The notes beneath the pieces were generated by a model, which saw only the letters and a list, made by a program, of their open reading frames with translations, was not told the DNA's origin and did not search any database. This document shows positions 10,782 through 49,888 of a stretch of DNA of 64,000 bases, one piece after another (position 1 is the first letter of the stretch; every line of letters starts with the position of its first letter). A program made the translations under genes and the position numbers. Source of the DNA: an uncultured bacterium (GTDB lineage: Bacteria > Omnitrophota > Gorgyraeia > Zapsychrales > Aceulaceae). The stretch lies in contig CALGLP010000022.1 in NCBI GenBank assembly GCA_937930175.1, forward strand, positions 161,360 through 225,359, given 5' to 3'.

Positions 10782-10803
10782 ATCCAAGAAGGAGGTAGGT
10801 GAT

Positions 10804-11844
10804 ATGCAAAAAATCGCTTTTTTTGATACTAAGCCATATGATCAAAAATCGTTTGATGCAGTTAACCAAAGCCACGGTTTTCATATCACCTACTTTCCTT
10901 TGCATCTTAATGAGGGCACCGCGACTTTAGCTAAAGGGTTTGACGTGGTTTGCGCTTTTGTTAACGATACGATGAGTAAGGCGGTTATTAGAACACTTAA
11001 AGAGGGCGGTGTTCAGCTGATTGCCTTGCGATGCGCAGGATATAATAATGTGGATTTAAAAGAGGCTTATGGGAATCTTCATGTTGTGCGGGTTCCGGCG
11101 TATTCTCCCTATGCGGTTGCGGAACATGCGGTTGCTTTGATGATGGGTCTCAATCGCAAAACCCATCGTGCTTATGATCGTGTACGCGATGGCAATTTTT
11201 CCATTAATGGTCTCTTGGGTTTTGACATGCATGGCAAATGGGCAGGGGTCATTGGTGTTGGCAAGATCGGGAAATGTTTAGTTTCCATTCTTAAAGGTTT
11301 TGGCATGGATGTCATCGTTTATGATCAATTTGTCGATGAAGCCTTTGCCAAAGAGAGTGGCGTTCGCTATGTGAGCCTGGAGTCTTTATATGCACAATCA
11401 GATATTATTTCTCTTCATTGTCCTTTGACGCGAGAAACACAGCATATGATTAACGATCAAAGCATTGCTACCATGAAGCCTGGGGTGATGATAATTAATA
11501 CGGGTCGCGGCAAGTTAATCGACACGAAAGCTTTGATCAACGGTCTTAAGACTGGTCAGATTGGCTCTGCGGGATTAGACGTTTATGAAGAAGAAAGCGA
11601 ATACTTTTTTGAAGATTTCTCGTCTTCGGTCATTGGCGACGATGTCCTTGCGCGCTTATTAACCTTTCCTAATGTTTTAATTACATCTCATCAGGGTTTT
11701 TTTACGAAAGAGGCTTTAGGCAATATTGCTGCGACAACACTTGAGAATATTGTTGAGTTCTTCAAGGGTGGGTATTTGAAAAATGAAGTTTGTTATCGCT
11801 GTGAAAAAGAATGCCGCAAGCAAAAAAAACAGCGATGTTTTTAA
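10804..11844 (+). CDS. ldhA: D-lactate dehydrogenase (D-isomer-specific 2-hydroxyacid dehydrogenase)
   Basis: NAD-binding GVIGVGKIGK motif. Catalytic region MIINTGRG..LDVYEEE and HQGFFT. Carries an unusual 14-aa Cys/Lys-rich C-terminal tail. Confidence 0.85.
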   Translation: MQKIAFFDTKPYDQKSFDAVNQSHGFHITYFPLHLNEGTATLAKGFDVVCAFVNDTMSKAVIRTLKEGGVQLIALRCAGYNNVDLKEAYGNLHVVRVPAYSPYAVAEHAVALMMGLNRKTHRAYDRVRDGNFSINGLLGFDMHGKWAGVIGVGKIGKCLVSILKGFGMDVIVYDQFVDEAFAKESGVRYVSLESLYAQSDIISLHCPLTRETQHMINDQSIATMKPGVMIINTGRGKLIDTKALINGLKTGQIGSAGLDVYEEESEYFFEDFSSSVIGDDVLARLLTFPNVLITSHQGFFTKEALGNIAATTLENIVEFFKGGYLKNEVCYRCEKECRKQKKQRCF

Positions 11845-35190: not shown

Positions 35191-36963
35191 TTATTTTAAG
35201 TATGATTTTCGTGCAATGTAGCTGGTGTGGAGAAGGTGATGGGATTTTTCAGAAAGCGGTTTGCCAAGAAACTCATCGTAAAGTTTCTGGATATAAGGAT
35301 TGTCATGGCAGCAGCGCACTTTCTGGTCACGATCATCTTGATAAAGCCCTTGGGCGCGTTTGATGCGTAAGTCGTCGGTAACTCCGTAGGGTTGTCCGCC
35401 TCCGGCCACGCAACCTCCAGAGCAAGCCATTACTTCAATAAAATGATACGGCATGTCTTGGCCATTCTTTTTAGCCTCAAGAACTTTGTTCATCACGTAA
35501 CCAACATTTCCTAAGCCATGCGCAACCGCTACTTTGACTTGTGTGCCTTTGATGTTGATCGTTCCCTCCTTGACTCCTTGAAGTCCGCGGACCATGTCGA
35601 TCTCAACATTTTTTAAGTTTTCTTGGGTGATCATGTTGTAGGCTGTTCGCAGAGCTGCTTCCATAACGCCGCCCGTGGTCCCGAAGATGGTTCCACCGCC
35701 AGCATAATCTCCTAAGATGTGATCAGGCTCTTCATCGGGTAAATTTTTAAAGTCAATTCCCGCCTGGCGGATCATGCGCGCAAGTTCACGCGTTGTGAGG
35801 GACAAGTCGACATCTTGCTGTCCGGAAGAGAACATTTCTTTGGATCGTATAATCTCGAATTTCTTGGCCGTGCAAGGCATGATCGAGACAACGAAAATAC
35901 GTTTGGGATCAATTTTGTTTTTTTCAGCAAAATATGTCTTAGCAAGGGCTCCGACCATTTCGTGAGGCGATTTACACGAGGAGAAAAATTCAATAGCGCC
36001 GTGGATATACTTTTCCATAAAATCGACCCAGGATGGGCAGCAGCTTGTGATCAAGGGCAAGGGCCCTTTTTTGTGAACAAAGCGTTGAACAAACTCTGTG
36101 GCCTCTTCGATGATGGTAACATCGGCACCAAAGTTTGTATCAAAGACAGCTTTAAAGCCAAGTCGGCGTAGGACAGCGTAAAGTTTTTTGGTTAAATTGG
36201 TTCCAATCGGATAGCCAAAGCTTTCTCCAATAGCGACGCGAACCGCAGGTGCAATCTGTGCAACGCAATAATTGTTTTCATCACGTAGCTTCGCCCATGT
36301 TGATTCGGTTTGGTCGTATTCGAAGATAGCGCCGGTAGGGCAGTGGGCAGAGCATTGGCCGCAGCGAACACACGGCGAGTCTGCTAAATTGATGTTGGCG
36401 GTTTCGAGGTCTCCTGCAGGGGCAATGCGCATATGGATACCGCGTCCTAAGAATCCTAACGCCCAGACATCTTGAATTTGTTGACAGACTTCAACACAAC
36501 GGCCGCATTTGATACATTTGGCAGGTTCCAAGACGATGCTTTTTGTTGAGATATCTTTTGTTTTGTTCTTGATAACTTTCTCAAAAAGTTCTTCTTGGAT
36601 TGCAAAGTCTGCGGTGAGTTTTTGGAGTTCACAATAATAGCTTCGTCCGCACTGAAGACAATCGTTGGGATGGTTGGATAAAATAAGCTCCAGAACGGTT
36701 TTGCGGACTTCAACGATTTCCGGATCATGGGTGATGATCTCCATGCCATCTTCAAGCGTGGTACAGCAAGAACGGAGAAGTTTTTTAGAGCCTTTAATTT
36801 TGACAATACATAGGCCGCACGCCGCTGTGGCGGGAAGGTCCGGATGTTTACAGAGGGTGGGGATTCTGATGTGAGCTTGTTTTGCAGCATCGAGAATGCT
36901 CAAACCCGCTGGGACGCGAACATTTTTATCATTAATTTTAGCTTTGATTGTTTTTGCTTGCAT
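35191..36963 (-). CDS. hydA: [FeFe]-hydrogenase catalytic subunit (HydA/HndD-like, multimeric NAD(P)-linked type)
   Basis: H-cluster motifs TSCCPSW, MPCTAKKFE and EVMACSGGCVAGGGQP. N-terminal 2Fe-2S domain and two 4Fe-4S ferredoxin motifs. Confidence 0.9.
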   Translation of the reverse strand: MQAKTIKAKINDKNVRVPAGLSILDAAKQAHIRIPTLCKHPDLPATAACGLCIVKIKGSKKLLRSCCTTLEDGMEIITHDPEIVEVRKTVLELILSNHPNDCLQCGRSYYCELQKLTADFAIQEELFEKVIKNKTKDISTKSIVLEPAKCIKCGRCVEVCQQIQDVWALGFLGRGIHMRIAPAGDLETANINLADSPCVRCGQCSAHCPTGAIFEYDQTESTWAKLRDENNYCVAQIAPAVRVAIGESFGYPIGTNLTKKLYAVLRRLGFKAVFDTNFGADVTIIEEATEFVQRFVHKKGPLPLITSCCPSWVDFMEKYIHGAIEFFSSCKSPHEMVGALAKTYFAEKNKIDPKRIFVVSIMPCTAKKFEIIRSKEMFSSGQQDVDLSLTTRELARMIRQAGIDFKNLPDEEPDHILGDYAGGGTIFGTTGGVMEAALRTAYNMITQENLKNVEIDMVRGLQGVKEGTINIKGTQVKVAVAHGLGNVGYVMNKVLEAKKNGQDMPYHFIEVMACSGGCVAGGGQPYGVTDDLRIKRAQGLYQDDRDQKVRCCHDNPYIQKLYDEFLGKPLSEKSHHLLHTSYIARKSYLK

Positions 36964-36965
36964 GA

Positions 36966-38762
36966 TTAACCTCGTGTGATCGCTTTAAATTTACATCGTT
37001 CGAAACATAGGCCGCATTTGATACATTTGGTGTGATCAATGAGATAGCCTTTTTCGCGGTCTCCGGAGATGGCTCCCACAGGGCATGCCTTGGCACAAAG
37101 ACCGCATTTAATACATTTTTCTATGAGAATGTCGAATTTGAGTAAATGACTACATTTGTGGGCGCGGCATTTATGATTTTGAATGTGCTCGGTATATTCC
37201 TCTGTAAAATATTTCATCGTTGATAAAACAGGGTTGCTTGCCGTTTGCCCTAGGCCGCATAGCGATGCCTTTTGCATGGCCTGGGATATCCTTGAAAGTT
37301 TATCAAGGTGGTCCATGGATCCATTGCCGTTGGTGATTTTTTCAAGGAGATGAAGCAGCTGATAGCCTCCAATGCGGCAGGGTGCGCATTTGCCACAAGA
37401 TTCATCAACAGAAAATTGTAAATAAAACTTTGTAATGTCCACAATACAATCATCTTCATCCATGACGATCATGCCGCCAGATCCCATCATCGAGCCAATG
37501 GCAATTAGGTTGTCATAATCGATGGGGGTGTCTAAGAATTGCGCGGGGATGACGCCTCCTGAAGGGCCTCCGGTTTGTGCAGCTTTGAATTGTTTGCCAT
37601 CTTTGATCCCGCCACCGATATCAAAGATGATCTCTCGCAGGGTTGTTCCCATGGGGACTTCGATAAGGCCAGAGTTGTTGATTTTTCCTGTTAAGGCAAA
37701 GACCTTTGTGCCTTTTGACTTTTCGGTCCCTATTTTAGCAAACCATGCGGCACCTCTTAAGATGATGACGGGGATGTTGGCCCAGGTCTCAACATTATTG
37801 ATAACAGTTGGTTTACCCCAAAGTCCTTTGACCGCAGGAAAAGGAGGTCGAGGCCGTGGCATGCCACGTTCACCTTCAAGAGAGGCTAAGAGCGCTGTTT
37901 CTTCGCCGCAAACAAAGGCGCCAGCTCCTAATCGGATTTCAATGTCAAAGCTAAAGGAACTTCCTAAGAGATTTTCACCTAAGAGTCCATAATCACGGGC
38001 TTGCGCTATGGCGATGTTGAGTCGCTCGATGGCGAGCGGGTATTCTGCGCGAATATAAATAAAGCCTTTGTTGGCATTAACCGCATAACCGGCAATGGTC
38101 ATTGCTTCGAGGATGGAGTGGGGGTCACCTTCAAGCGTGCTTCTGTCCATATAGGCTCCAGGATCGCCTTCGTCCGCGTTGCAGACAATATATTTGATGT
38201 CGCTAGGAGCTTTTTTTGTGAATGACCATTTCATGCCTGTTGGGAATCCTGCGCCACCGCGTCCGCGTAGGCCTGATTTGGTGACTTCCTCAATGACTTG
38301 GTCAGGGGTCATCTCAAAGAGGACTTTTTCAAGCGCCTTGTAGCCATCGCGGGCAATGTATTCATCGATTTTTTCAGGATCGATCACGCCGCAGTTTCTT
38401 AAGACAATGCGAAATTGTTTTTGATAGAAATCGATATTGGCCACGTCGGTCATAGGGTGGCGGCCTTTGTCGTCTTTGGGGTTGTACAAAAGACGCTTGA
38501 CCATTCGTCCTTTAATAATGTTTTCTTCGATGATCTCGCGAACATCTTCAGGCTTGAGTCGCACATAAAAGGCATTGTCGGGTAAGACTTTAACAATGGG
38601 TCCTTGTTCGCAAAAGCCAAAACAACCTGTTTTAACAACTTGGACATCATTTTCAAGCTGATGGTCTTTGATTTCTTTCATGAAATGATCATGGATTTCG
38701 CGCGAGCGACTTGATTCGCAGGCCGTTCCAGAACAAATAAGAATATAATGTTTATAGGGCAT
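36966..38762 (-). CDS. hydB: NuoF-like NAD(P)H-binding flavoprotein subunit (HydB/HndC)
   Basis: N-terminal thioredoxin-like 2Fe-2S. NuoF FMN/NADH motifs (GRGGAGFPTG, ADEGDPGA). SLBB and C-terminal 2x4Fe-4S (CIKCGLC...). Confidence 0.9.
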   Translation of the reverse strand: MPYKHYILICSGTACESSRSREIHDHFMKEIKDHQLENDVQVVKTGCFGFCEQGPIVKVLPDNAFYVRLKPEDVREIIEENIIKGRMVKRLLYNPKDDKGRHPMTDVANIDFYQKQFRIVLRNCGVIDPEKIDEYIARDGYKALEKVLFEMTPDQVIEEVTKSGLRGRGGAGFPTGMKWSFTKKAPSDIKYIVCNADEGDPGAYMDRSTLEGDPHSILEAMTIAGYAVNANKGFIYIRAEYPLAIERLNIAIAQARDYGLLGENLLGSSFSFDIEIRLGAGAFVCGEETALLASLEGERGMPRPRPPFPAVKGLWGKPTVINNVETWANIPVIILRGAAWFAKIGTEKSKGTKVFALTGKINNSGLIEVPMGTTLREIIFDIGGGIKDGKQFKAAQTGGPSGGVIPAQFLDTPIDYDNLIAIGSMMGSGGMIVMDEDDCIVDITKFYLQFSVDESCGKCAPCRIGGYQLLHLLEKITNGNGSMDHLDKLSRISQAMQKASLCGLGQTASNPVLSTMKYFTEEYTEHIQNHKCRAHKCSHLLKFDILIEKCIKCGLCAKACPVGAISGDREKGYLIDHTKCIKCGLCFERCKFKAITRG

Positions 38763-38772
38763 AAAAACCTCG

Positions 38773-39162
38773 TTAATGTTTTACAATGTCAATAGAAGGT
38801 TTGTCTTGAATATGATCATCGAGTAGCGCTTTGTCGATAATATGTTTCTGGATAATCTTACGCGCAGTATCTTCTGTGACGTTTCCATAGAGAGTCGTTG
38901 GCATGTCGGGCATGAAGATCTCAACGGTCGGCTCAACATTGCAATTGCCCATACAGCCGGTTTGTTTAACCGCAATATTCTTAAGGTTACGTTTGTTGAG
39001 TTCATCGATGAAGGCATTTAAGGTTTTTTTGGCTCCTGCAGCAATTCCGCAAGTTCCCATGCCAACCACGATACGGGTATCTTGTTGGCTATCGCGCTTG
39101 TCCATGTCTATTTTGAGCGATTCGCGCATTTTTCGTAAATCATCAAGAGTAAGTTTGCTCAT
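38773..39162 (-). CDS. Small thioredoxin-like 2Fe-2S ferredoxin subunit (HndB/HydD-like)
   Basis: GMGTCGIAAGA...GCMGNCNVEP cluster-binding pattern. Sits between the ATPase and NuoF-like genes. Confidence 0.7.
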   Translation of the reverse strand: MSKLTLDDLRKMRESLKIDMDKRDSQQDTRIVVGMGTCGIAAGAKKTLNAFIDELNKRNLKNIAVKQTGCMGNCNVEPTVEIFMPDMPTTLYGNVTEDTARKIIQKHIIDKALLDDHIQDKPSIDIVKH

Positions 39163-39171
39163 AGTTATCTC

Positions 39172-39714
39172 CTAGAGATTGATAATGTCTTGTTCTAAGC
39201 TAATGAGATATTTCTGGGCTAGCATTAAGTTGCCAGCGCGAGAGAGATCTCCGAGTGTTTTTTTCAAATCATTACGAACAATAGTATATTTTTGTTCGCC
39301 GTATGATCGGTTGATGACCAATTCATGATTGCCATCAAAGATCATTAACTGCAACATTGTCTGCGGTACGTCGCCAAGCGGGGGAGTATCCACATGGGAT
39401 TTATGAAACGTAAAGGAAACTGATGTTCCAAAATCTTTTTCAGATCGAATATCCCAGGTGCCGCAACCCTGTTCTACGGCTTGCGCTAAGAACGATAATC
39501 CAAGGCCTTGCGTGCGTTTATGTTTTTTGCCATTGGTTATAAAAGGATCTTGCGCCTTGGCTAAGGTTTTGGGATCCATGCCTTTACCATTATCTGCGAC
39601 CAGAAACTTATATTTTTCCTTTGTTTCGATGACATCAACAACAATGAGCGTCGCTTCGGATTCAATAGAGTTTTGAACAATGTCGCTTAAAAAGTCACAG
39701 AGCGTTAAATGCAT
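39172..39714 (-). CDS. Histidine-kinase-like ATPase (HATPase_c only) associated with hydrogenase operon
   Basis: N-box-like IVQNSIES, DNGKGMD, GLGLS G-boxes. No HisKA or receiver domain. Confidence 0.65.
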   Translation of the reverse strand: MHLTLCDFLSDIVQNSIESEATLIVVDVIETKEKYKFLVADNGKGMDPKTLAKAQDPFITNGKKHKRTQGLGLSFLAQAVEQGCGTWDIRSEKDFGTSVSFTFHKSHVDTPPLGDVPQTMLQLMIFDGNHELVINRSYGEQKYTIVRNDLKKTLGDLSRAGNLMLAQKYLISLEQDIINL

Positions 39715-39716
39715 TG

Positions 39717-40189
39717 CTAATACTTAGAAAGAATTTCTGGAAGTTGGCTTTTGAGAAGCTTTCCGTAGACGGTTCCGTTGATGGACATGACGGGAGCGAG
39801 TCCACAGCAGCCTAAGCAGCGTACAGCTTCAACCGAAAATTTTCCATCCGGGGTCATATCATTGAGGCCTACTCCTAAGATGGTTTCAAGCTCTTTGATG
39901 ATGTCTTCGCCGCCCTTAAGATAACAGGCTGTTCCCATGCAAACGGCAATAATGTTTTTTCCTCGTTTTTCTAATTTAAAGTAATGATAAAAAGTAATCA
40001 CGCCATAAATTTTGGCGAGAGGAACATCGAGAACTTCGGCGAGTTTGAAAGCAACATTGCGAGGAATAAAGCCATATTCTTCTTGGGCCTTGTGTAAGAT
40101 CATGATGAGATTGCCGGGCTTGTCTTTCCATTGAGCAATATAATCTAAAAGCCCAGGTGTGAGTTCAAGATTTTTGATCGTTTCCATTT
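39717..40189 (-). CDS. hydC: NuoE-like 2Fe-2S subunit (HydC/HndA)
   Basis: CMGTACYLKGGE...CLGCCGLAPV thioredoxin-like 2Fe-2S motifs. GGAGGA RBS on the minus strand. Start at ATG 40189. Confidence 0.85.
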
Positions 40190-40348
40190 TAAATCCTCCA
40201 GTGAGAAGCTTAAGAATAGGGCAAATTATAAAGGAAAGAGGGGAACTAATCAAGAGAAATCTTTTGTTACTATGAGAACTTTTAATTTGACATATTGATA
40301 TCTTATGTTACTATTGTGACATAAAAATAGAGAAAGGAGAGTGTTATT

Positions 40349-41011
40349 GTGACTGAAAGCAAGGAATTGATATCACGATTGCTCAAATATAAGAATGTTT
40401 TAACAAATTTCAAAAAACTTGGGATGGTCAAGATCTTTTCGGACAATCTTGGGGATGCTACGGGGTTGTCCTCGTCGCAGGTGCGTAAGGATTTTAGCGC
40501 CCTCAAGATCACCGGCAATAAGCGTGGCGGTTATGATGTTGATCATTTGGTTGTGCGGCTTAATCAAATCTTAGTTGGTGACCGTAAGCAGAAGGTGATC
40601 GTGGTCGGTTGTGGCAATATTGGCCGTGCCTTGATTGAATATAACGGATTTCATTGCGAGAGTCTAAAAATCGTTGCGGGGTTTGATATTAGCAAAGGGA
40701 AATGGGATCCTGAGGCTAAGGTGCCGATCTATCCATTAGAAAAAATGGAAGAGTATGTTAAGAAGAATCAGATCAAGGTTGGCGTTGTTGCTGTCCCTGA
40801 GAATGAGGCATCTTCGGTTTGCGACAAGATGATCGCCGCAGGTATTAAGGGTATTTTAAATTTTGCACGTGTTTATATTCGCGAGACCGAAGGGGCTGTG
40901 GTGGATACGGTTAACATTGAGCTCAAGATCGAGAATTTGTTTTATTTCGCCAATGCCCTAACCAAAGAACATGATTATTCTAAGATTAAGAGGCAACTCC
41001 ATGAAGATTGA
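40349..41011 (+). CDS. rex: Redox-sensing transcriptional repressor Rex
   Basis: Winged-helix N-terminus (ISRLLKYKNVL...ATGLSSSQVRKDFS) and Rossmann VIVVGCGNIGRAL. GTG start after AAGGAGAG. Confidence 0.85.
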   Translation: MTESKELISRLLKYKNVLTNFKKLGMVKIFSDNLGDATGLSSSQVRKDFSALKITGNKRGGYDVDHLVVRLNQILVGDRKQKVIVVGCGNIGRALIEYNGFHCESLKIVAGFDISKGKWDPEAKVPIYPLEKMEEYVKKNQIKVGVVAVPENEASSVCDKMIAAGIKGILNFARVYIRETEGAVVDTVNIELKIENLFYFANALTKEHDYSKIKRQLHED

Positions 41012-41342
41012 TCAACTTATCAAAGCATTAGATTGTGAGGTGGTGCACCGCCGCAAAGAAACAGGCGTTAAAGATCTCAAGCATTTTGTTGTTTCGGATC
41101 TTATGAGCGATGTCCTTCTTGTCGATGGCGATGTGGATCTTTTGATCACGTCGTTAGCGACAACGCAGGCGATACGCACCGCTGATATCGTAAGTGCGAT
41201 TGGCGTTATTGTTGTTAATGGCAAGGCGGTAACCGCGGATATGAAAGTTTCTGCCAAAGAGCTTGATGTCACGTTGCTGAAGACAAAGCTATCTTCTTTT
41301 GAGGTTTGCGGCACCATTCATCATCTGAAAGGACAAGAGTGA
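41001..41342 (+). CDS. DRTGG domain protein
   Basis: Small protein with a DRTGG-like core (LLITSLATTQAIRTADIVSAIGVIVVNGK). Confidence 0.55.
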   Translation: MKIDQLIKALDCEVVHRRKETGVKDLKHFVVSDLMSDVLLVDGDVDLLITSLATTQAIRTADIVSAIGVIVVNGKAVTADMKVSAKELDVTLLKTKLSSFEVCGTIHHLKGQE

Positions 41343-42283
41343 TGACGGATAAAGGCATTCCGATCAAGATGGAAGAATCGACATCGTTGATCTTGGACTT
41401 GATCTATCAACTCAAGATTAAAGATGTCATGACTCGCAATCTGGTCATTGCTTCTCCTGAGGATTCCTTGGATCATATTAAGACATTAATGAAGCAAAGA
41501 AATGTTACCGGTATTCCGATTGTGAAGAAAGATCGGCTTTTGGGTATCTTGAGTATTGATGATATTTTTAAGGCTTTAGATAGTGGCTATATGCAAGAGC
41601 TTGCAGAAAAGCATATGTCTAAGAAGCTTGTCATGCTCGAAGAGGACATGCCGCTTGCCTTTGCGATTTCTTATTTTGATAAATTTAAGTATGGTCGTTT
41701 TCCTGTGGTTGATAAAAACAATCTTTTGGTAGGGATGATCACGAGCCGTGATATTAATGTTGGACTTTTGATGGCCATCAACAAAGAAGTTGCGCGCATG
41801 GAAGAACTTTTGGCCCAGACGACTCCTGTTGATGCGCATCATATTCGCAAGATGTTCCGTATCCGTAAGTATGATTTTGAACATGCCGGGAACGCGTCAA
41901 ATCGGATTAAAAAGCTTCTTGTGGAGCGTAAGTTGGATCCCAAAGATATTCGACGTGTTGCGGTCGCGATGTATGAGCTCGAGATTAACATTGCTGTCCA
42001 TTCTGACGGAGGAACATTGACGGTGATCATTGATCAAGATCATGCGGAGATTACTGCCAAGGACTCAGCGCCTGGGATCGAACATCCGGAACTCGCGCTT
42101 CAGGAAGGATATTCAACAGCCAACGAATGGATTAAGTCTTTGGGTTTTGGGGCCGGCATGGGGTTAGCCAATATTCGTCGTGTTTCCGATAGTTTTGATT
42201 TTCAGTCGGCGCTTGGCAAGGGAACGACCGTTCGAGCGGTTATTCATTTTAAACGAAAGGAAGAGAAAAGCCATGACCATTAG
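41342..42283 (+). CDS. CBS-pair + histidine-kinase-like ATPase (anti-sigma-factor-type Ser kinase fold)
   Basis: Two CBS motifs (VMTRNLVIASPED, PVVDKNNLLVGMITSRDI). C-terminal HATPase (GFGAGMGLANI, GKGTTV). Confidence 0.65.
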   Translation: MTDKGIPIKMEESTSLILDLIYQLKIKDVMTRNLVIASPEDSLDHIKTLMKQRNVTGIPIVKKDRLLGILSIDDIFKALDSGYMQELAEKHMSKKLVMLEEDMPLAFAISYFDKFKYGRFPVVDKNNLLVGMITSRDINVGLLMAINKEVARMEELLAQTTPVDAHHIRKMFRIRKYDFEHAGNASNRIKKLLVERKLDPKDIRRVAVAMYELEINIAVHSDGGTLTVIIDQDHAEITAKDSAPGIEHPELALQEGYSTANEWIKSLGFGAGMGLANIRRVSDSFDFQSALGKGTTVRAVIHFKRKEEKSHDH

Positions 42284-42608
42284 TGAGATGACAAAGCTTA
42301 CAGAACTTACGCTTGTGCAGAAGGAATTTGAGGATGGTGTGATTTCCGGAGGATACACATCTGATCTTTTGAGCGATGTGATCGCCAATGCTGAGGCGAA
42401 TAATATCTTGATCACAATCCAAGCGCATATTAACACCGTAGCCGTATCAAAATTGGTTGGGATTCGTGCTATTGTTATTGCTAATCATAGAGAAGTTCCT
42501 ATTGATATGGTGGAAGCGGCTCAAAAAGAAAAGATTGCCCTTTTTTCATCAACGCTTAGCCAGTTCTCCTTGTCTGTCTTGATTGGCAAGCATATCCATA
42601 AACAATGA
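42273..42608 (+). CDS. DRTGG domain protein (second copy)
   Basis: ILITIQAHINTVAVSKLVGIRAIVIANHREVPIDMVEAAQKEKIALF. Start overlaps the preceding stop. Confidence 0.55.
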   Translation: MTISEMTKLTELTLVQKEFEDGVISGGYTSDLLSDVIANAEANNILITIQAHINTVAVSKLVGIRAIVIANHREVPIDMVEAAQKEKIALFSSTLSQFSLSVLIGKHIHKQ

Positions 42609-43327
42609 TGCGCATAAAAGCGGATCTCCATATCCATTCGACAGTTTCACCTTGTGCTACTCTTTTGATGTCGCCGAAGAATATTGTTAGCGTTGCGAAG
42701 GCCAAGGGATTGTCTCTTGTGGCCCTGACCGACCATAATTGTACGCGCAATTGTCCTGCATTTTTTTCGTTGTGCAAACGTGAAAATTTATTTTGCTTGG
42801 GCGGGGCTGAAGTGACAACCGTTGAGGAATGTCATGTCCTTTGCCTTTTTGATAATCTCAAGATTATTATGGAATTTGGCCAGTACGTCGAATCCCGCTT
42901 GCCTGATGTGCCTAATCAAAGAGATCTTTTTGGTGATCAGGTTTATGTCAATGACCAGGAGGAGATCTTAGGTTCTGTGGAAAAGTATCTGGGTAATGCC
43001 ACCAGTATTAGCGTCTCTGAGCTTTGTAGGGCTGTGCATGAGCGAGGTGGTATTATTATTCCTGCGCATGTGGATCGTCCTGTTTTTGGAATGATCGCCC
43101 AATTAGGCTTTATTCCGCAGGAGCCTTTTGACGCCCTTGAGATCTATCGAAATAATAAGAGTGCCGCTATTGGCGCAGAAGAAAAGTATCCTCTTATTTC
43201 TAATTCGGATTCGCATATGCCAGATGAAGTTGGTTGTGTTTATACGGCAATGGAGATGCCGGAGATATCCTTTATCAATTTGAAAGAGGCATTGAAGCGT
43301 GGGGCAGTTTTTATTGAGCGGGGATAG
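42605..43327 (+). CDS. PHP-domain metal-dependent phosphoesterase
   Basis: ADLHIHST...ALTDHN...PAHVDRP His/Asp motifs of the PHP family. Confidence 0.75.
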   Translation: MMRIKADLHIHSTVSPCATLLMSPKNIVSVAKAKGLSLVALTDHNCTRNCPAFFSLCKRENLFCLGGAEVTTVEECHVLCLFDNLKIIMEFGQYVESRLPDVPNQRDLFGDQVYVNDQEEILGSVEKYLGNATSISVSELCRAVHERGGIIIPAHVDRPVFGMIAQLGFIPQEPFDALEIYRNNKSAAIGAEEKYPLISNSDSHMPDEVGCVYTAMEMPEISFINLKEALKRGAVFIERG

Positions 43328-43506
43328 CGGTCTTTAGCAAAGAGCAAGAATTACGACTAGATAGTTAAGACTTAAAAAACATTTTTGATTTCTAGTATTT
43401 TGTGTATAATATTTTAATTGATCGAGACAAGGTATTGCATTTTTTAACGAGCAAGGGGTGTGGGGTTGAATAAAGATGATTTTATTTTTTGGTTAAAGAA
43501 ACATGT

Positions 43507-43542
43507 GCCGGCTTACCATGAAAGGTGAGCCGGTTTTATTTT
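43507..43542 (+). terminator. Intrinsic terminator/attenuator ending 23 nt before the nuoE-like start codon
   Basis: GCCGGCTTACC-ATGAAA-GGTGAGCCGG stem followed by TTTTATTTT. RBS AAAAAGGAGG and GTG 43566 follow directly. Confidence 0.6.
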
Positions 43543-43565
43543 ATGGATTTTAAAAAGGAGGCGTT

Positions 43566-44129
43566 GTGAAGCAAATAAGCCAAGGTTTGTCAAAAGATCA
43601 GCCTGTTGGTTCCTGTTGTTGTGGTGAGTTCTCCGAACCAGAAATGTTAAAACGTCTCGATGAGATTATTGATACGTATAAGTCTGCGGATGGGGCCTTG
43701 ATCCCGATCTTGCAAACAGCTCAAAATTTATTTGGATATCTTCCGAAAAATATTTTGCGTCGGATTGGCGAACGATTGCGGATCCCGTATAGTCAAGTCG
43801 CTGGCGTTGTGTCGTTTTATTCTTTTTTCTCAACAAATCCTCGGGGTAAGAATTTAGTGCGTGTGTGTCTGGGAACCGCGTGCTATGTGCGTGGAGGCAA
43901 GGAGGTTTTGTCAACGATGCAAAAAACCCTTGGCATTAATGTTGGTGAAACAACAGCTGATAAAATGTTTTCGCTGGAGGTTGGGCGTTGTTTTGGTGCC
44001 TGTGGTTTGGCGCCTGTTGTGATGATCAACGAGGATGTTCATCAGCGGGTTAAGCCAGCAAAGATAAAAGAACTTCTAAGCTTTTATCGTGAGGCAAAGT
44101 CACAGACACAGGAGGCCGCCGCATGTTAA
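43566..44129 (+). CDS. hydC: NuoE-like 2Fe-2S subunit (HydC/HndA), second locus
   Basis: CLGTACYVRGG...CFGACGLAPV. Confidence 0.85.
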   Translation: MKQISQGLSKDQPVGSCCCGEFSEPEMLKRLDEIIDTYKSADGALIPILQTAQNLFGYLPKNILRRIGERLRIPYSQVAGVVSFYSFFSTNPRGKNLVRVCLGTACYVRGGKEVLSTMQKTLGINVGETTADKMFSLEVGRCFGACGLAPVVMINEDVHQRVKPAKIKELLSFYREAKSQTQEAAAC

Positions 44130-47100
44130 CTGACAAGATTTTATCCTTGAAAGATTTAAATCGTATCAAAGATGCTGCGGTTGCGGAAAAGGTCAAACGT
44201 AGTATTTATAAAGAGGTTTTGATCTGTGCTGGGGGAGGATGTATTGCTAGCGGTTCGCTGCAGATTAAGAAACGCTTGGAAGAGAAGATTGAGAAGAATG
44301 GAGTTGTCATCGATATTGTCGAGACAGGATGTTTAGGTCCTTGCGCTAAGGGGCCTGTGATGGTCGTAAACCCTGGGCATGTCTTTTATGAGAATGTTAC
44401 CCTTGATGATGTTGATCAAATTTTTGAGGAACATCTTTTTAAGGGGAAAATTGTTGAGCGGCTTTTGCATCGCAATTTTGAAACGAATAAACCTGTTTCT
44501 GACATCAAGGATGTTGATTTTTTTAAACGACAAACAAAAATTGTTTTGCGGAATTGCGGAACGATCGATCCTCAGAATATTGTTGATTATATTCGCGTGG
44601 ATGGATATCAGGCTTTGGCCAAGGCTTTGACGATGATGTCGGCTGATCAGATTATTGATGAGGTTAAAAAGTCAGGGCTCCGCGGCCGTGGAGGAGCAGG
44701 GTTTTCTACTGGAATGAAATGGGAATTTACACGTAAAGCGCCCGGCAGTGTTAAATACGCGATTTGCAACGCGGATGAAGGAGATCCTGGGGCTTTCATG
44801 AATCGAAGCGTTCTTGAGGGAGATCCTCATAGCGTGATCGAAGGGATGATGATCGCGGGTTTTGCGATTGGGGCTAAACAAGGATTTGTTTATGTGCGGG
44901 CGGAGTATCCGTTGGCGGTTTCACGATTGATGAAGGCGATCGAGCAGGCTCGGGCGTGTGGCCTTTTAGGAAAAAATATTCTTGGAACGGATTTTTCATT
45001 TGATTTGGATATCCGCATGGGTTCTGGGGCGTTTGTGTGCGGAGAAGAAACTGCTTTGATGGCATCATTGGAGGGAAAGCGTGGAGAGCCGCGTCCGCGT
45101 CCACCTTTTCCAGCTATTAAAGGACTTTGGGGTAAGCCGAGCTTGCTCAATAACGTTGAGACATATGTTAATGTGCCGATCATTCTCCTTAAAGGGGCCG
45201 ATTGGTTTGCGTCGATGGGAACGGAAAAAAGCAAGGGAACCAAGGTGTTTGCCTTAGCAGGGGCTGTGAACAATACAGGGCTTGTGGAGGTTCCTATTGG
45301 GACGTCGCTTGGGGAGTTAATTTATGATATTGGCGGTGGGATCAAAAATGGAAAAGAATTTAAGGCCGCTCAAATTGGAGGGCCCTCGGGAGGCTGTATC
45401 CCTAAGCAACATCTTAATGTTCCATTGGACTACGACACGCTTGTTGAGTTGGGCGCTATCATGGGATCAGGCGGGCTCATTGTGATGGATGATGATTCGT
45501 GTATTGTGGATGTGGCGCGTTTTTTTCTTGAATTTGTGCAAGATGAATCGTGCGGAAAATGTGTGCCGTGTCGTGTTGGGTCAAAACGGATGCTTGAGAT
45601 CCTTGAGAAAATTTGTAAAGGAGAAGGTAAACCAGAGCATATTAAGAAATTGCTTGAATTGGGTGAAGGAATAAAAGATGCTTCGCTTTGTGGGTTAGGC
45701 TATACCTCGGCTAATCCTGTGCGTTCAACCTTGCGTCATTTTCCTAAAGAATATGAAGAGCATATTCGTGATAAACATTGTGAGGCTGGGGTTTGCCCTG
45801 ATCTCGTGCGGGCCCCGTGCCAGAGCGCTTGCCCAGCCGGTGTTGACATTCCAGGTTTTATTGCTTTAACAGGGGAAGAACGCTACGCGGAAGCGCTCAA
45901 GCTTCATCGTGAACGCAATCCTTTTGCGGCTGTGTGCGCAAGAGTTTGTTTTCACACTTGCGAGGATAAATGTCGCCGCGCTACGCTCGATACATCGGTT
46001 TCGATTCGTGGGATCAAGCGTTTTATGGTGGACCAAGAGATTGTCGTCCAAATCCCGGAGATTCATCATAACGAGGCAAATGCTAAGAGAAAGATCGCGA
46101 TTGTTGGGGCGGGGCCTGCCGGACTGTCTTGTGCGTATTTTCTTGCGCGCTTAGGTTATCGTCCTACGGTTTTTGAGAAAGAAATGCGTCCTGGAGGGAT
46201 GCTTGTTCAAACTATTCCTGCGTATCGTTTGCCACGAGAAACCTTAGCCCGTGAAATCCGCATGATTGAGCAGCTTGGTGTTGAAATTGAAACCGGAAAG
46301 GCGCTGGGACGTGATTTTACGATTGATTCGTTAAAGAAGCATGGTTATGAGGCGATCTTTATTGCCGTAGGAGCTCCGGAAAGTGTGCGCCTTGGGCTTG
46401 ACGGCGAAGCCTCGGGAGGGGTTGTTGATGCCCTTGATTTTTTAAGAACTTATAATATCAGGGGATCTGTTCCTGTGGGTAAGAAAGTTGTTGTTGTAGG
46501 AGGTGGGAATGCCGCGATTGATGCCTCGCGGAGCGCGTTGCGTTTAGGGGCCCAAGAAGTGACGGTTGTTTATCGTCGTAGTCAAAATGAAATGCCAGCG
46601 TACGCGGAAGAAGTGGACGAGGCTTTGCATGAAGGTGTCAAGATCTTGCCTTTAACTCACCCTATCGAGATCAAAAAGGATAAGGATGGGAAAGTCTGTG
46701 GATTAAAGTGTATTCACATGAAGCTTGGGGATTTTGATCAGACAGGGCGACGACGCCCAACCGCGAACGCGGAAGATGTTTTCGATATGGAAACGGATCA
46801 AGTGATTGTTGCGATTGGACAGAAAATGGATGTTAAAAAGCTTCTTGATGGGGTAACGATGAAGCTTTCAGAGAGAAATTTTATTTATGCGGATCCGGTT
46901 TTAGGAAAAACTTCGGTGGAGGGAATTTTTGCCGGAGGGGATGCCACGACGGGTCCTTCCTCAGTTGTGATGGCGATTTCTTCAGGAGAACATGCGGCAG
47001 TTGGGATTGATCAATATTTGACCGGAGAAGAACATGCATTTTGGCGTGTGCAGAAAGCTGTTAAGGTTGATTTTGATCCCGATGCGGACCCTGCTCCATA

Positions 47101-47260
47101 TCCGCGAGATCCGTTGCGATTGATTGATGTGGCGCGTCGCAAACATAATTTTGATGAAGTTGAACAATCGTGGAATGAAGGCGTAGCTAGGCGGCAAGCC
47201 AAGCGATGTTTGCGCTGCGATTATGGAAAATGTTTAGATGAGAAAGGGGGTAAGGCGTAA
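44123..47260 (+). CDS. hydB: NuoF-like flavoprotein subunit (HydB) fused to a C-terminal GltD/NfnB-like NAD(P)H:FAD oxidoreductase domain
   Basis: The N-terminal 600 aa are collinear with the first-locus HydB (GRGGAGFSTG, ADEGDPGA, 4Fe-4S motifs). The C-terminal 440 aa carry the GltD-type Cys motifs, IVGAGPAGL and a second VVVGGGNAA dinucleotide fold. Confidence 0.85.
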   Translation: MLTDKILSLKDLNRIKDAAVAEKVKRSIYKEVLICAGGGCIASGSLQIKKRLEEKIEKNGVVIDIVETGCLGPCAKGPVMVVNPGHVFYENVTLDDVDQIFEEHLFKGKIVERLLHRNFETNKPVSDIKDVDFFKRQTKIVLRNCGTIDPQNIVDYIRVDGYQALAKALTMMSADQIIDEVKKSGLRGRGGAGFSTGMKWEFTRKAPGSVKYAICNADEGDPGAFMNRSVLEGDPHSVIEGMMIAGFAIGAKQGFVYVRAEYPLAVSRLMKAIEQARACGLLGKNILGTDFSFDLDIRMGSGAFVCGEETALMASLEGKRGEPRPRPPFPAIKGLWGKPSLLNNVETYVNVPIILLKGADWFASMGTEKSKGTKVFALAGAVNNTGLVEVPIGTSLGELIYDIGGGIKNGKEFKAAQIGGPSGGCIPKQHLNVPLDYDTLVELGAIMGSGGLIVMDDDSCIVDVARFFLEFVQDESCGKCVPCRVGSKRMLEILEKICKGEGKPEHIKKLLELGEGIKDASLCGLGYTSANPVRSTLRHFPKEYEEHIRDKHCEAGVCPDLVRAPCQSACPAGVDIPGFIALTGEERYAEALKLHRERNPFAAVCARVCFHTCEDKCRRATLDTSVSIRGIKRFMVDQEIVVQIPEIHHNEANAKRKIAIVGAGPAGLSCAYFLARLGYRPTVFEKEMRPGGMLVQTIPAYRLPRETLAREIRMIEQLGVEIETGKALGRDFTIDSLKKHGYEAIFIAVGAPESVRLGLDGEASGGVVDALDFLRTYNIRGSVPVGKKVVVVGGGNAAIDASRSALRLGAQEVTVVYRRSQNEMPAYAEEVDEALHEGVKILPLTHPIEIKKDKDGKVCGLKCIHMKLGDFDQTGRRRPTANAEDVFDMETDQVIVAIGQKMDVKKLLDGVTMKLSERNFIYADPVLGKTSVEGIFAGGDATTGPSSVVMAISSGEHAAVGIDQYLTGEEHAFWRVQKAVKVDFDPDADPAPYPRDPLRLIDVARRKHNFDEVEQSWNEGVARRQAKRCLRCDYGKCLDEKGGKA

Positions 47261-49038
47261 TGGTGAAGTTAACAATTGATCGTAACATGGTCGAAGTTCC
47301 CCCTGAGATGACGATTTTGCAGGCCGCGCGACAAATGGGCATTATTATTCCTACGTTGTGTTATCTAGAAGGTAAGGATCCTATTGGTGCCTGTCGGGTG
47401 TGCGTTGTTGAGGTGCAAGGTGGTCGTAATTTGGTATCATCTTGTTCAACGCCTGTTGCGGAAGGCATGGTTGTTTTTACCAATAGCCCCCGTGTTCGTA
47501 GAGCTCGTAAATTAGTTGTTGAGCTTCTTTTGAGTGAGCATGAAGGAGATTGTCAAATTTGTGACCGCAGTGAGGATTGCGAATTAAAATCCTTGGCTTA
47601 TAGCTTAGGAATTCGCGAGCCGCATTATGAGGGTGAAAAGCCAGAAAGGTTTTTGGATGTAAGTTCTTCCGCGCTTGTTCGAGATTCTGGCAAGTGCATA
47701 AAATGTCGTCGCTGTGTTACGGTTTGCAACGAAATTCAACACGTGGGAGCCCTTTTTCCTCAGAATCGTGGATATAAAACATTGATCGGACCTGCGTTTG
47801 CTCTAGGCCTTGAAGATGTACCTTGCGTTCAATGTGGGCAGTGTGCAGCGGTTTGTCCTGTGGGCGCGATCATTGAGAAAAGCCATGTGGATATGGTTTG
47901 GGCAGCGCTTGAGGACAAGACTAAACATGTCGTTGTGCAAACCGCTCCCGCGATTCGTGCGGCGCTAGGGGAGTGTTTTGATTATCCACCAGGAACTCTT
48001 GTGACAGGAAAAATGATCACCGCGCTTCGTCTTATGGGATTTGATGCGGTTTTTGATACTAATTTTGCGGCGGATTTGACGATCATGGAAGAAGGCACAG
48101 AGCTTTTGTTGCGTCTTAAAAAGGCGCTCGTTGAAAAACAACCCGTGGCCTTGCCTCAATTTTCAAGTTGTTCGCCGGGATGGATCAAGTTTACCGAATA
48201 TTTTTATCCAGAGTTTCTGCCGAATCTATCTTCTTGTAAGTCACCGCAACAAATGTTTGGCGCGATCGCGAAGACGTTTTATGCGCAAAAGAAGGGCTTG
48301 CGTCCTGAAGATATTGTTGTTGTGTCGGTTATGCCGTGTACGGCGAAAAAGTTTGAATCCAGCCGTCCTGAGATGAATAGTAGCGGCGTCAGAGACGTGG
48401 ATTATGTTTTGACAACACGCGAATTAGGTCAGATGATCACGGCGGCCGGTATTCATTTTACAGCGTTAGAAGACGGACAGACGGATTCGCCTCTTGGGCT
48501 TTCGTCGGGTGCCGCGGATATTTTTGCTAATAGCGGTGGGGTTATGGAGGCGGCTATCCGTACGGCTTACGAGATCGTGACAGGTCGTGAGCTTCCACTT
48601 GTAAATCTTCATGTTGAACCTTTGGCAGGGCTAAAGGGAATTAAAGAAGCAGCCCTTAAGCTTGAGCAGGTTCTTCCGGCGTGGTCTTTTTTAGAAGGTG
48701 TTGAATTAAAAGTCGCCGTCGCGCATAGCTTATCCAATGCCGCGGCCTTGCTTGATCTCATCAAGGCGGGTCAGGCCCATTATCATTTTGTTGAGGTCAT
48801 GACATGTCCTGGGGGATGTATTGGTGGAGGAGGCCAGCCGCGATTTACAACTGATGAAGTCCGTCGGGCGCGCATCAATGCGATCTACAAGGAAGACGAA
48901 GGCAAGGCAATGCGCAAATCCCATGACAATCCGGACGTAAAAAAGCTCTATGCAGAGTTTTTGACTGATGGCCCTTGTGGTCATCAAAGCCATAAGCTTT
49001 TGCATACGCATTATGTTGACCGTGGGGATAAAATTTGA
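47260..49038 (+). CDS. hydA: [FeFe]-hydrogenase catalytic subunit, second locus, with variant L1 motif
   Basis: MPCTAKKFE and EVMTCPGGCIGGGGQP are conserved. L1 reads FSSCSPGW instead of TSCCPxW. N-terminal 2Fe-2S plus ferredoxin domains. ATG overlaps the hydB stop. Confidence 0.9.
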   Translation: MVKLTIDRNMVEVPPEMTILQAARQMGIIIPTLCYLEGKDPIGACRVCVVEVQGGRNLVSSCSTPVAEGMVVFTNSPRVRRARKLVVELLLSEHEGDCQICDRSEDCELKSLAYSLGIREPHYEGEKPERFLDVSSSALVRDSGKCIKCRRCVTVCNEIQHVGALFPQNRGYKTLIGPAFALGLEDVPCVQCGQCAAVCPVGAIIEKSHVDMVWAALEDKTKHVVVQTAPAIRAALGECFDYPPGTLVTGKMITALRLMGFDAVFDTNFAADLTIMEEGTELLLRLKKALVEKQPVALPQFSSCSPGWIKFTEYFYPEFLPNLSSCKSPQQMFGAIAKTFYAQKKGLRPEDIVVVSVMPCTAKKFESSRPEMNSSGVRDVDYVLTTRELGQMITAAGIHFTALEDGQTDSPLGLSSGAADIFANSGGVMEAAIRTAYEIVTGRELPLVNLHVEPLAGLKGIKEAALKLEQVLPAWSFLEGVELKVAVAHSLSNAAALLDLIKAGQAHYHFVEVMTCPGGCIGGGGQPRFTTDEVRRARINAIYKEDEGKAMRKSHDNPDVKKLYAEFLTDGPCGHQSHKLLHTHYVDRGDKI

Positions 49039-49097: not shown

Positions 49098-49442
49098 ATG
49101 GCATATGATCCAAAAGCGATTCTAAAGAATTTTAATAAATGCATGACCGATATCCGCAAGGCTGTGCCGTCGGAATATGACGCATTTATGCAAGAAAAAG
49201 AGATTATTTTAAAGTCAAATCGTCTTCCTGAGAAAACAAAATGGTTGTTATTGTTGGTTTCGAGCGTAAGTCAAAAATGTCCTGTTTGTTTGACGCGCGC
49301 GGTGACGCACTGTCTCAAGCAGGGATGGACAAAAAAGGAAATGCTTGAAGCGTGTATGGTCGCGGTTTTGGTTGGTGGCGCAAGCACTATGACCTATGTG
49401 ACGATGGTTGATCAGGCGATTGATGAGTTGACGAAAGGCTAA
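49098..49442 (+). CDS. Carboxymuconolactone decarboxylase / AhpD-like family protein
   Basis: CPVCLTRAVTHC (CxxC...H) core typical of the AhpD-like fold. RBS AGGAGG. Confidence 0.6.
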   Translation: MAYDPKAILKNFNKCMTDIRKAVPSEYDAFMQEKEIILKSNRLPEKTKWLLLLVSSVSQKCPVCLTRAVTHCLKQGWTKKEMLEACMVAVLVGGASTMTYVTMVDQAIDELTKG

Positions 49443-49567
49443 GAAATATTTGGTGCTCTTTCTGATAGCATAATTCGTTACATTGACCTACGGACAAGGG
49501 GCGTCAAAGCCCTGTGGCTAAGGGATCAACTCGCAGCAAATATTTGTTGGTGAGTTGTGTTTTTTAG

Positions 49568-49610
49568 AATCCCGGGTTTCCGTTAACAGGCAATCCGGGA
49601 TTTTTATTTT
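49568..49610 (+). terminator. Intrinsic terminator/attenuator ending 18 nt before the hydrogenase-maturation operon start
   Basis: AATCCCGG...CCGGGATT stem with a 19-nt loop followed by TTTTTATTTT. RBS GGAG and ATG 49629 follow. Confidence 0.55.
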
Positions 49611-49628
49611 ATTGATAGGAGAAATATA

Positions 49629-49877
49629 ATGAAAAATCGTTTAGGTTTTATTGGGATTATTATTCATGATCGGGATAAGAGTGCTGAAAAGGTTAATCAT
49701 ATTTTGCATCAGCACGCCAAAATGTTCGTCGGGCGCATGGGTATTCCGTACAAGGAAAAGAATGTGGGTGTTATTACCTTGATTGTCGATGCGGATACGG
49801 ATGACATTGGCGCCCTTACGGGCCGACTTGGCGAGATTGAAGGTGTTTCTGTTAAATCAGCGTTAGTTAAAGAATAG
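49629..49877 (+). CDS. Putative iron-only hydrogenase system regulator (TM1266-like small ACT-type protein)
   Basis: About 80-aa protein at the head of a hydEFG cluster. Sequence and context match the TM1266-like family. Confidence 0.6.
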   Translation: MKNRLGFIGIIIHDRDKSAEKVNHILHQHAKMFVGRMGIPYKEKNVGVITLIVDADTDDIGALTGRLGEIEGVSVKSALVKE

Positions 49878-49888
49878 AAAAGGTACAA

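Follow-up and report, generated by a model that had tools for sequence, protein, structure and literature searches.

A 64,000-nucleotide (nt) stretch of the Omnitrophota contig CALGLP010000022.1 (positions 161,360 to 225,359; called the window below) contains an operon that starts with the gene of the redox-sensing repressor Rex and continues with four genes, which encode two small proteins with divergent DRTGG domains (DRTGG1 and DRTGG2), a kinase-like protein composed of a CBS pair and a GHKL domain (CBS-GHKL), and a PHP-type phosphoesterase. These four genes are referred to here as the cassette. A preliminary description, made from the sequence alone, had placed the cassette between rex and the hydrogenase structural genes; this position was confirmed, and hydrogenase genes were found to flank it on both sides. 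The genes of the operon, with protein lengths in amino acids (aa), are as follows:

40349–41011, forward strand: rex, encoding the redox-sensing repressor, at the head of the operon (NCBIfam equivalog, Pfam)
41001–41342, forward strand: DRTGG1, 113 aa, divergent DRTGG domain with the motif SDLMSDVL (Pfam, orthologues, gene call)
41342–42283, forward strand: CBS-GHKL, 313 aa, with a CBS pair at about residues 20–145, a linker helix at 135–160 and the GHKL domain at about 172–305
42273–42608, forward strand: DRTGG2, 111 aa, paralogue of DRTGG1 with the motifs YTSDLLSDV and TIQAHxNT
42605–43327, forward strand: PHP metal-dependent phosphoesterase (PHP and PHP_C domains), 240 aa (Pfam, structure model)

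The gene starts overlap, as had been described, and the four genes after rex do so by 11, 1, 11 and 4 nt, respectively. The ATG of DRTGG1 (41001) precedes the stop codon of rex (41009–41011), the stop of DRTGG1 and the start of CBS-GHKL share 1 nt in the sequence TGATG, the ATG of DRTGG2 (42273) lies within the end of CBS-GHKL (stop at 42283), and DRTGG2 and PHP overlap in ATGA. The preliminary description had started DRTGG1 at an upstream in-frame ATG at 40971. Its start is most likely at 41001, because an AAGAGG ribosome-binding site lies upstream of this codon, the starts of the homologues coincide with it, and the four genes were predicted to encode 113, 313, 111 and 240 aa in gene calls made independently on identical contigs from metagenomes.

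In the CBS-GHKL protein two CBS motifs (Pfam CBS, 92.8 bits) are located N-terminally, while the GHKL half passed the gathering scores of both HATPase_c (36.5 bits) and HATPase_c_2 (PF13581; 33.9 bits, gathering score 27.4). The boxes of the Bergerat fold, namely the N-box E212-x3-N216-x3-H220, the G1 box D241-x2-P-G and the G2 box GFGAGMGL, were invariant in 78 homologues (50–89% identical) from Omnitrophota, Spirochaetota, Margulisbacteria, Fibrobacterota, Kiritimatiellia and Desulfobacterota, with identities of 50–57% across the latter five groups. The AlphaFold2 (AF2) model (predicted local distance difference test score, pLDDT, 83.8) consists of the CBS pair, a 26-residue helix (135–160) and the GHKL domain, and the CBS pair carries the canonical ribose-binding motifs GILSIDDI and GMITSRDI. 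When the GHKL half was compared with known structures by Foldseek, SpoIIAB (1TIL/1L0O) came out best with template modelling (TM) scores of 0.82–0.83 (ranks 24 and 33 overall), and SpoIIAB was also the top sequence match of the kinase in the PDB (E 0.03). Because the kinase half resembles SpoIIAB, its prediction as a serine kinase or an ATP-dependent switch is reasonable. The preliminary description had noted that this protein and a second, 180-aa GHKL protein encoded at 39172–39714 lack HisKA domains; indeed, no HisKA match was found in either of them with Pfam, and no response regulator gene adjoins the cassette in the window. A two-component histidine kinase was thus rejected as a description of CBS-GHKL, given the lack of a HisKA/DHp domain and of a response regulator next to the cassette.

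The two small proteins were assigned at the family level. With Pfam DRTGG (gathering score 25.2), DRTGG1 itself fell short at 20.6 bits; DRTGG2 alone gave no DRTGG match and a weak match to Hpr_kinase_N only. Among the orthologues, 27 of 29 DRTGG1 proteins matched PF07085 at E ≤ 0.1 (best E 8e-9), as did 26 of 30 DRTGG2 proteins (best 4e-7), and all 30 of the latter matched Hpr_kinase_N. hhalign identified the two families as paralogues (probability 99.2%). They have in common the motif D-[LM]-[LMI]-S-D-V, the Ser of which is invariant; both diverge from PF07085 at the classical "DR" and "TGG" positions. By these profile comparisons, both small proteins are paralogous, divergent DRTGG domains. 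Searches of the PDB with single DRTGG proteins gave no match, and with the family profiles the only entries at E < 0.1 were the CBS-DRTGG regulatory part of CBS-pyrophosphatase (3L2B/3L31). No STAS match was found in either protein by Pfam or in the orthologue scans. The four domain calls of the preliminary description (DRTGG, CBS, HATPase and PHP) therefore hold, the DRTGG call being weak in the window's own proteins and supported at the level of the families.

The PHP protein matched Pfam PHP (32.6 bits) and PHP_C (34.4 bits), and its metal-binding motifs HxH, H, E, H, H and DxH are all present. The metal ligands D7, H9, H11, D43, H44, E69, H77, H155, D202 and H204, and also C17, were invariant in alignments of 39 and 64 sequences. 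The AF2 model, built with database homologues, had a pLDDT of 94.4. The nearest relatives by sequence and structure were EndoQ (Endonuclease Q), TM0559, BAD_1165, RNase AM, pAp phosphatase-like enzymes and the PHP domains of polymerases, and none of the PHP-type protein phosphatases (CpsB/YwqE, protein-tyrosine) occurred among the top 50 structural matches. The phosphatase logic that the preliminary description had attached to this gene was thus not borne out by the kinship of the protein; with such enzymes as its nearest relatives, its role as the protein phosphatase is no more than putative. It was also observed that the family (alignments A5 and A6) has an invariant HS-x-x-SPC motif (S15, P16, C17), and that the orthologues have two further conserved cysteines, C13 (Thr in the window) and C57. 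Judged from the alignments, these cysteines may be redox-sensitive or form an extra metal site beside the active centre.

Two hydrogenase operons flank the rex operon:

35191–40187, reverse strand: hydrogenase operon 1, diverging from rex (Pfam, NCBIfam)
39717–40187, reverse strand: HydC/NuoE-like gene of operon 1 (gene call of 156 aa)
39172–39714, reverse strand: second, stand-alone GHKL protein of 180 aa in operon 1 (Pfam HATPase_c, 47.2 bits)
38773–39162, reverse strand: 2Fe-2S ferredoxin-like gene of operon 1
36966–38762, reverse strand: HydB of operon 1
35191–36963, reverse strand: HydA1 of operon 1
43566–49038, forward strand: hydrogenase operon 2 (Pfam, NCBIfam)
43566–44129, forward strand: NuoE-like gene of operon 2
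44123–47260, forward strand: NuoF fused to a GltD-like domain, operon 2
47260–49038, forward strand: HydA2 of operon 2

The gap between the stop codon of PHP and the NuoE-like gene of operon 2 is 238 nt. Downstream of HydA2 lie a gene of the TM1266 family (putative "iron-only hydrogenase system regulator", 49629–49877) and HydF, HydG and HydE, a full maturation set into which an aspartate ammonia-lyase-like (aspartase-like) gene (49889–51286, overlapping HydF) is embedded. With the two flanking operons, the TM1266-type regulator and HydF/HydG/HydE, the cassette is surrounded by the genes of a complete [FeFe]-hydrogenase island. As the preliminary description had stated, there is no HydS-type sensory hydrogenase here: tblastn with a 462-aa HydS of Bacteroidota as query found no HydS-like gene in the 64-kb window, only weak matches to HydA1 and HydA2 with 24–26% identity.

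The conservation of the cassette was examined by a scan of GTDB species genomes, which gave more than 551 relatives of CBS-GHKL, and the best 80 loci were compared, each count below referring to the loci with enough flanking sequence. DRTGG2 lay 3′ of the kinase at 75 of 78 loci and PHP at 62 of 71, DRTGG1 lay 5′ of it at 31 of 69, rex was directly upstream at 17 of 63, and hydrogenase genes occurred in the flank at 28 of 56, or at 16 of 23 if at least 8 kb was available on each side; since these best-scoring loci are phylogenetically redundant and biased to close relatives, the fractions are descriptive only. The neighbourhood comparison called for by the preliminary description thus found the order kinase-DRTGG2-PHP at most of the loci, and this synteny is far beyond chance. 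The closest genomes were Candidatus Omnitrophota metagenome-assembled genomes (MAGs) with 85–91% protein identity. The divergent arrangement of operon 1 and rex recurs in several phyla: the layout HydC-GHKL-Fdx-HydB-HydA diverging from rex and the cassette was seen in Omnitrophota, Spirochaetota, Margulisbacteria and Kiritimatiellia, while the Fibrobacterota loci and one spirochaete-type locus keep the divergent hydrogenase operon with no rex in between, and in loci labelled Lentisphaerales or Akkermansia the cassette lies 3′ of the hydrogenase operon. As regards the proposed control of hydrogenase expression or activity, the presence of hydrogenase genes nearby is frequent and not universal. 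Among the cultured bacteria that carry components of the cassette are Breznakiella homolactica, Spirochaeta cellobiosiphila, Sediminispirochaeta and Chitinispirillum.

A likeness to components seen beside some clostridial hydrogenase loci had also been proposed, and comparison with HydS-type loci of Bacteroidota, Planctomycetota, Spirochaetota and Armatimonadota revealed where it lies. The Bacteroidota locus was reached through a homologue of the PHP protein. In Bacteroidota (loci L081–L083) the gene order is DRTGG, kinase, HydS, DRTGG, PHP, GHKL, HydB, HydA and HydC; in the L081 type the first DRTGG protein has 114 aa, the stand-alone HATPase_c_2 kinase 136 aa, HydS 462 aa, the second DRTGG protein 112 aa and the GHKL protein 178 aa, and a gene for a 132-aa protein lies between GHKL and HydB. 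Over 130 residues, the Bacteroidota kinase and the stretch 172–301 of CBS-GHKL are 42% identical, and identity to the window is 36% for DRTGG1, 35% for DRTGG2 and 36% for the second GHKL protein (L081 10735–11271), whose orthologue stands directly 3′ of PHP in the HydS-type loci and within operon 1 in the window. The 462-aa HydS contains Fer4, Fe_hyd_lg_C and FeS domains and a C-terminal Cx2Cx4Cx16C motif, and it has no PAS domain. In a Brocadia-like planctomycete (L086) and a spirochaete (L087) the order is DRTGG1, a kinase-HydS fusion, DRTGG2, PHP, GHKL, NuoE, Fdx, NuoF/GltD and HydA, and in an armatimonadote (L088) a cassette without PHP is followed by HydE, HydG and HydF. Profile searches assigned the small gene upstream always to the DRTGG1 type and the one downstream always to the DRTGG2 type in the HydS-type loci. 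The planctomycete locus also has a 438-aa insert (9679–10995) between kinase-HydS and DRTGG2, with a hydrophobic N-terminal stretch and no Pfam match.

The association of the kinase with different sensors was seen on a larger scale when the kinase domain alone was searched against 1.8 billion cluster representatives. Among the best 150 of the 422 representatives found at E ≤ 1e-10, 42 were CBS-kinases, 42 kinase-HydS fusions and 44 kinases alone; six were DRTGG-kinase fusions, one was a kinase-DRTGG fusion, and 15 had short extensions or were unassigned. The kinase-HydS fusion family comprises 1799 proteins at E ≤ 1e-10. The HydS-fused kinases cluster in a neighbour-joining tree of the kinase domain, on which 22 state changes were counted, a noisy figure, as fragments were probably mis-scored as "alone". 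From the orthologous HydS-type cassettes in other phyla, and the CBS pair standing here in place of HydS, we concluded that the window contains a variant, with the sensor swapped (CBS for HydS), of a signalling cassette associated with hydrogenases.

HydS proteins of this kind have been characterized in part. TamHydS (Thermoanaerobacter mathranii HydS), an M2e "group D" putative sensory hydrogenase, has the same domain and motif features (PMC8163306), and PAS-less HydS proteins have been described as "putatively sensory" enzymes of low activity, whose signalling route was left open (PMC8163306, PMC10407848). The only flanking partner mentioned in the TamHydS papers is a histidine-kinase-like ATPase (PMC8163306, PMC10407848), and the TamHydS supplement contains no operon detail. 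HydDB lists class C1 as "histidine kinase-linked (putative)" with an undetermined role (PMC5037454); the HydS proteins of L081–L088 are placed in this class, or "group D", by domain content and the Cx2Cx4Cx16C motif and not by phylogeny. In the literature searched we found neither a paper linking DRTGG or PHP genes to hydrogenases nor a description of the cassette. For PHP, Rex and hydrogenase together, the search returned only a table of Rex sites that lists a "PHP domain protein", Tsac_1856, and the locus tags neighbouring it appear in no indexed paper.

Compared with the PAS-less HydS cassettes, the window has orthologous DRTGG1, kinase, DRTGG2, PHP and second GHKL genes in the same order beside HydABC-type genes; it differs in having no HydS, in the CBS pair at the N-terminus of the kinase and in the placement of the cassette within a rex operon. 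It is, then, a member of the PAS-less HydS cassette minus the sensor. The Ser/Thr partner-switching logic suggested by the preliminary description stands in part. The SpoIIAB/SpoIIAA/SpoIIE and RsbW/RsbV/RsbU modules have in common with the cassette a small GHKL domain of the HATPase_c_2 serine-kinase type with a SpoIIAB-like fold, and a compact operon with small alpha/beta partners and a metal-dependent phosphoesterase. In contrast to them, the cassette has DRTGG instead of STAS proteins, PHP instead of PP2C, no sigma factor and a kinase fused to its sensor. Neither the operon nor its conserved neighbourhood contains a sigma factor gene. PHP is the sole hydrolase of the window cassette, and the one added in Treponema loci is of the HAD type, so that no PP2C is present. 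A canonical partner-switching system was rejected because, without a STAS antagonist, a PP2C phosphatase and a sigma factor, three of its four defining features are missing. CBS and DRTGG domains are also used together in the regulatory insert of CBS family II pyrophosphatases (CBS-DRTGG-CBS; 3L2B/3L31), but there the domains share one polypeptide and the effector is a DHH phosphatase, whereas here CBS and DRTGG are on separate polypeptides, the effector is a GHKL domain and the DR and TGG motifs are replaced. PAS-type HydS systems (HydDB C3; Ruminococcus albus HydS, Thermoanaerobacterium hfsABCD) also have putative regulators encoded in linkage with [FeFe] hydrogenase genes, often under Rex control (PMC11837493, PMC5886521). 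They differ from the window in their PAS domain and serine (PP2C-type) phosphatase, and the DRTGG and PHP genes of the window have no orthologues among their components. The cassette is thus real, conserved and largely undescribed, and a variant of known signalling logic.

That it is a regulatory cassette directed at hydrogenases, with its sensor exchanged, we hold to be somewhat better than an even chance. The cassette would be cytoplasmic and mainly dedicated to multimeric [FeFe] hydrogenases. Its SpoIIAB-type GHKL domain, to which DRTGG1 and DRTGG2 would bind, would either phosphorylate serine or act as a binding switch that depends on ATP. The input may be interchangeable: in many phyla it would come from a PAS-less HydS domain adjoining or fused to the kinase, and here from the CBS pair joined to the kinase N-terminus via the long helix. 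As its input domain is a CBS pair, the Omnitrophota version would report an adenosine-nucleotide-type metabolite (energy or redox state) and not H2, and if the sensor, HydS or CBS, is modular, it would turn this metabolite signal into the same hydrogenase-controlling output. A ligand on the CBS pair may alter the ATP-dependent activity of the kinase towards its DRTGG partners, the candidate acceptor being the invariant Ser of the D-[LM]-[LMI]-S-D-V motif; PHP might reverse the change and reset the state, and the state of the DRTGG/kinase complex would tune how the hydrogenases on the two sides are expressed or how active they are. This specific phospho-switch is plausible but tentative, and we would sooner doubt it than rely on it. 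Equally tentative is its extension to other phyla, by which the cassette would be the signal-transduction path of the PAS-less "sensory" [FeFe] hydrogenases and a new partner switch, with a DRTGG Ser as acceptor in a fold new to this role, PHP as the first of a class of phosphoserine protein phosphatases and a modular HydS or CBS sensor.

Several observations weigh against this reading. Phosphotransfer, the ligand of the CBS pair, the substrate of PHP and the output are what we infer, and the phospho-acceptor is putative. The cassette has no conserved output component, such as a sigma factor or, Rex aside, a DNA-binding domain. In about half of the loci the flank examined has no hydrogenase gene, most of these being termite-gut Treponema MAGs, and the synteny sample has the bias described above. 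At 34 loci of the Treponema type a Cof-type HAD phosphatase gene stands between DRTGG1 and the CBS-kinase (for example, L025 9139–9999), so that the cassette contains a second hydrolase, and these loci are usually beside parAB and not beside hydrogenase genes. PHP is absent from the armatimonadote cassette, and its closest relatives cut nucleic acids or nucleotides. DRTGG domains are not known as kinase substrates, and in CBS-pyrophosphatases DRTGG is a regulatory or dimerisation domain; the DRTGG proteins could therefore be co-sensors and not substrates. Fusion to the kinase is also at least as compatible with a regulatory role of DRTGG as with a role as substrate.

Some of these points belong to other explanations. 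The GHKL proteins might be ATP-driven clamps or chaperones that help in the assembly or maturation of flavin/Fe-S hydrogenases, with the DRTGG proteins as adaptors and PHP processing a nucleotide-derived cofactor or intermediate. In every phylum seen, the second GHKL gene is part of the operon of hydrogenase structural genes; this would suit such a role, as would the HydE, HydG and HydF genes after the armatimonadote cassette and the action of PHP relatives on nucleotides or nucleic acids; the kinase domain, however, is SpoIIAB-like and not Hsp90- or MutL-like, it is fused to classic sensors (CBS or the low-activity, putatively sensory HydS; PMC8163306, PMC10407848), and in many loci the cassette is far from hydrogenase genes, which together make an assembly role unlikely. 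We attach as little probability to a nucleotide-messenger loop, in which PHP would degrade an adenosine signal (pAp, Ap4A, or a cyclic or linear dinucleotide) bound by CBS and/or DRTGG, while GHKL would read the ligand state with no protein phosphorylation. The canonical ribose-binding motifs of the CBS pair, the CBS-pyrophosphatase regulatory part as nearest PDB entry of the DRTGG profiles and the resemblance of PHP to pAp phosphatase-like enzymes and RNase AM all point in this direction, but the HydS-type cassettes, which have no CBS, contain PHP and both DRTGG proteins just as well, and the cassette includes no conserved nucleotide cyclase or synthase.

Less probable still is a general metabolic regulator that stands beside hydrogenase genes only as a member of the Rex regulon. 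Hydrogenase genes in the flank of just half of the loci, the scarcity of rex next to the cassette and the Treponema-type cassettes near parAB with a HAD phosphatase can be quoted for it; however, the cassette adjoins hydrogenase genes in at least seven phyla and in differing arrangements, the kinase is fused to a hydrogenase-type sensor in the large family described above, and the PHP gene overlaps the GHKL gene of the hydrogenase operon in the L081 and L087 loci. Anti-phage defence or mobile-element cargo is effectively refuted: although each of the CBS, GHKL and PHP domains is also found in defence systems, and parts of the CBS and PHP proteins gave weak partial NCBIfam matches to DS11, Ppl and TrlF far below the cut-offs, PADLOC matched none of the five proteins, the base composition is the same as that of the surroundings and the cassette keeps its synteny with genes of core energy metabolism from phylum to phylum.

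A hydrogenase-directed cassette with a swapped sensor would be of interest because in fermenters, in syntrophs and in anaerobes of gut and sediment the redox balance is set by electron-bifurcating and related [FeFe] hydrogenases, whose regulation is poorly understood. It offers a concrete, conserved candidate pathway of four to five small soluble proteins for signalling by PAS-less HydS, in which gene fusions indicate the components that work together. The natural exchange of CBS for HydS separates input from output and may show how HydS sensors signal; if the proposal is true, SpoIIAB-type kinases and PHP enzymes gain new partner classes.

As for the expression of the operon, its first gene encodes a Rex protein by the NCBIfam equivalog NF003996 (214.8 bits, cut-off 138) and by Pfam (Put_DNA-bind_N and CoA_binding). 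The predicted control elements of the operon and of the leader of operon 2 are:

40264–40281: second degenerate Rex-like box
40287–40322, forward strand: promoter-like site TTGACA-16-TACTAT with TG (promoter scan)
40305–40322: Rex-like palindrome ATGTTAC-TATT-GTGACAT overlapping the −10 box (core TGTTA-N6-TGACA; alignment with the related loci L001–L003)
43507–43544, forward strand: terminator-like hairpin with U-tract (conserved in L001–L003)

No canonical Rex box with up to three mismatches was found in the rex/hydC intergenic region, and the window contains five, no more than expected by chance. The palindromes in the window are degenerate compared with the TTGTGAA-N4-TTCACAA-type operator and were found only through alignment with the relatives, which have zero to one mismatch: the aligned promoter region of L001 contains a perfect ATGTTAC-TATT-GTAACAT, and L002 and L003 have a Rex box with one mismatch at the aligned upstream position. 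Because the palindrome overlaps the −10 box and near-consensus boxes stand at the aligned positions in the relatives, rex is probably autoregulatory; it would be co-transcribed with the cassette.

The hairpin is GC-rich, has a stem of 10–11 bp and lies directly before the ribosome-binding site and GTG start of the NuoE2-NuoF/GltD-HydA2 operon. In the same region (43380–43566) a conserved TATAAT occurs at about 43404–43409, about 100 nt before the hairpin, the arms of which covary with pairing kept (C:G in the window, U:A in L001). Judged by its position and conservation, this element may be the terminator of the rex operon or an attenuator of hydrogenase operon 2. An Rfam scan of the 38–52 kb part at E ≤ 1 matched no family, the hairpin included, and the leader before NuoE2 folded no better than shuffled sequences (z = −1.6) apart from the terminator hairpin.

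Some further features were noted around the island. The NuoF-GltD fusion of operon 2 (1045 aa) is a HydB subunit with a GltD-like NAD(P)H/FAD domain, which matches the uncharacterised HydDB type "A2, glutamate synthase-linked"; hydrogenases of this GltD-fused type are also found 3′ of the HydS-type cassette in the planctomycete and spirochaete loci L086 and L087. The region 3′ of HydA2 (49098–55016) also encodes an AhpD/peroxidase-like protein. Further downstream, the best match to the Rex operator in the window, TTATGAAAATTTTCACAA (one mismatch, 55389–55406), lies at the start of a thioredoxin open reading frame (55369–55689), and a CoA-disulfide reductase-like gene (56217–57926) follows it; this match and the gene next to it suggest a possible Rex control of thiol redox genes.

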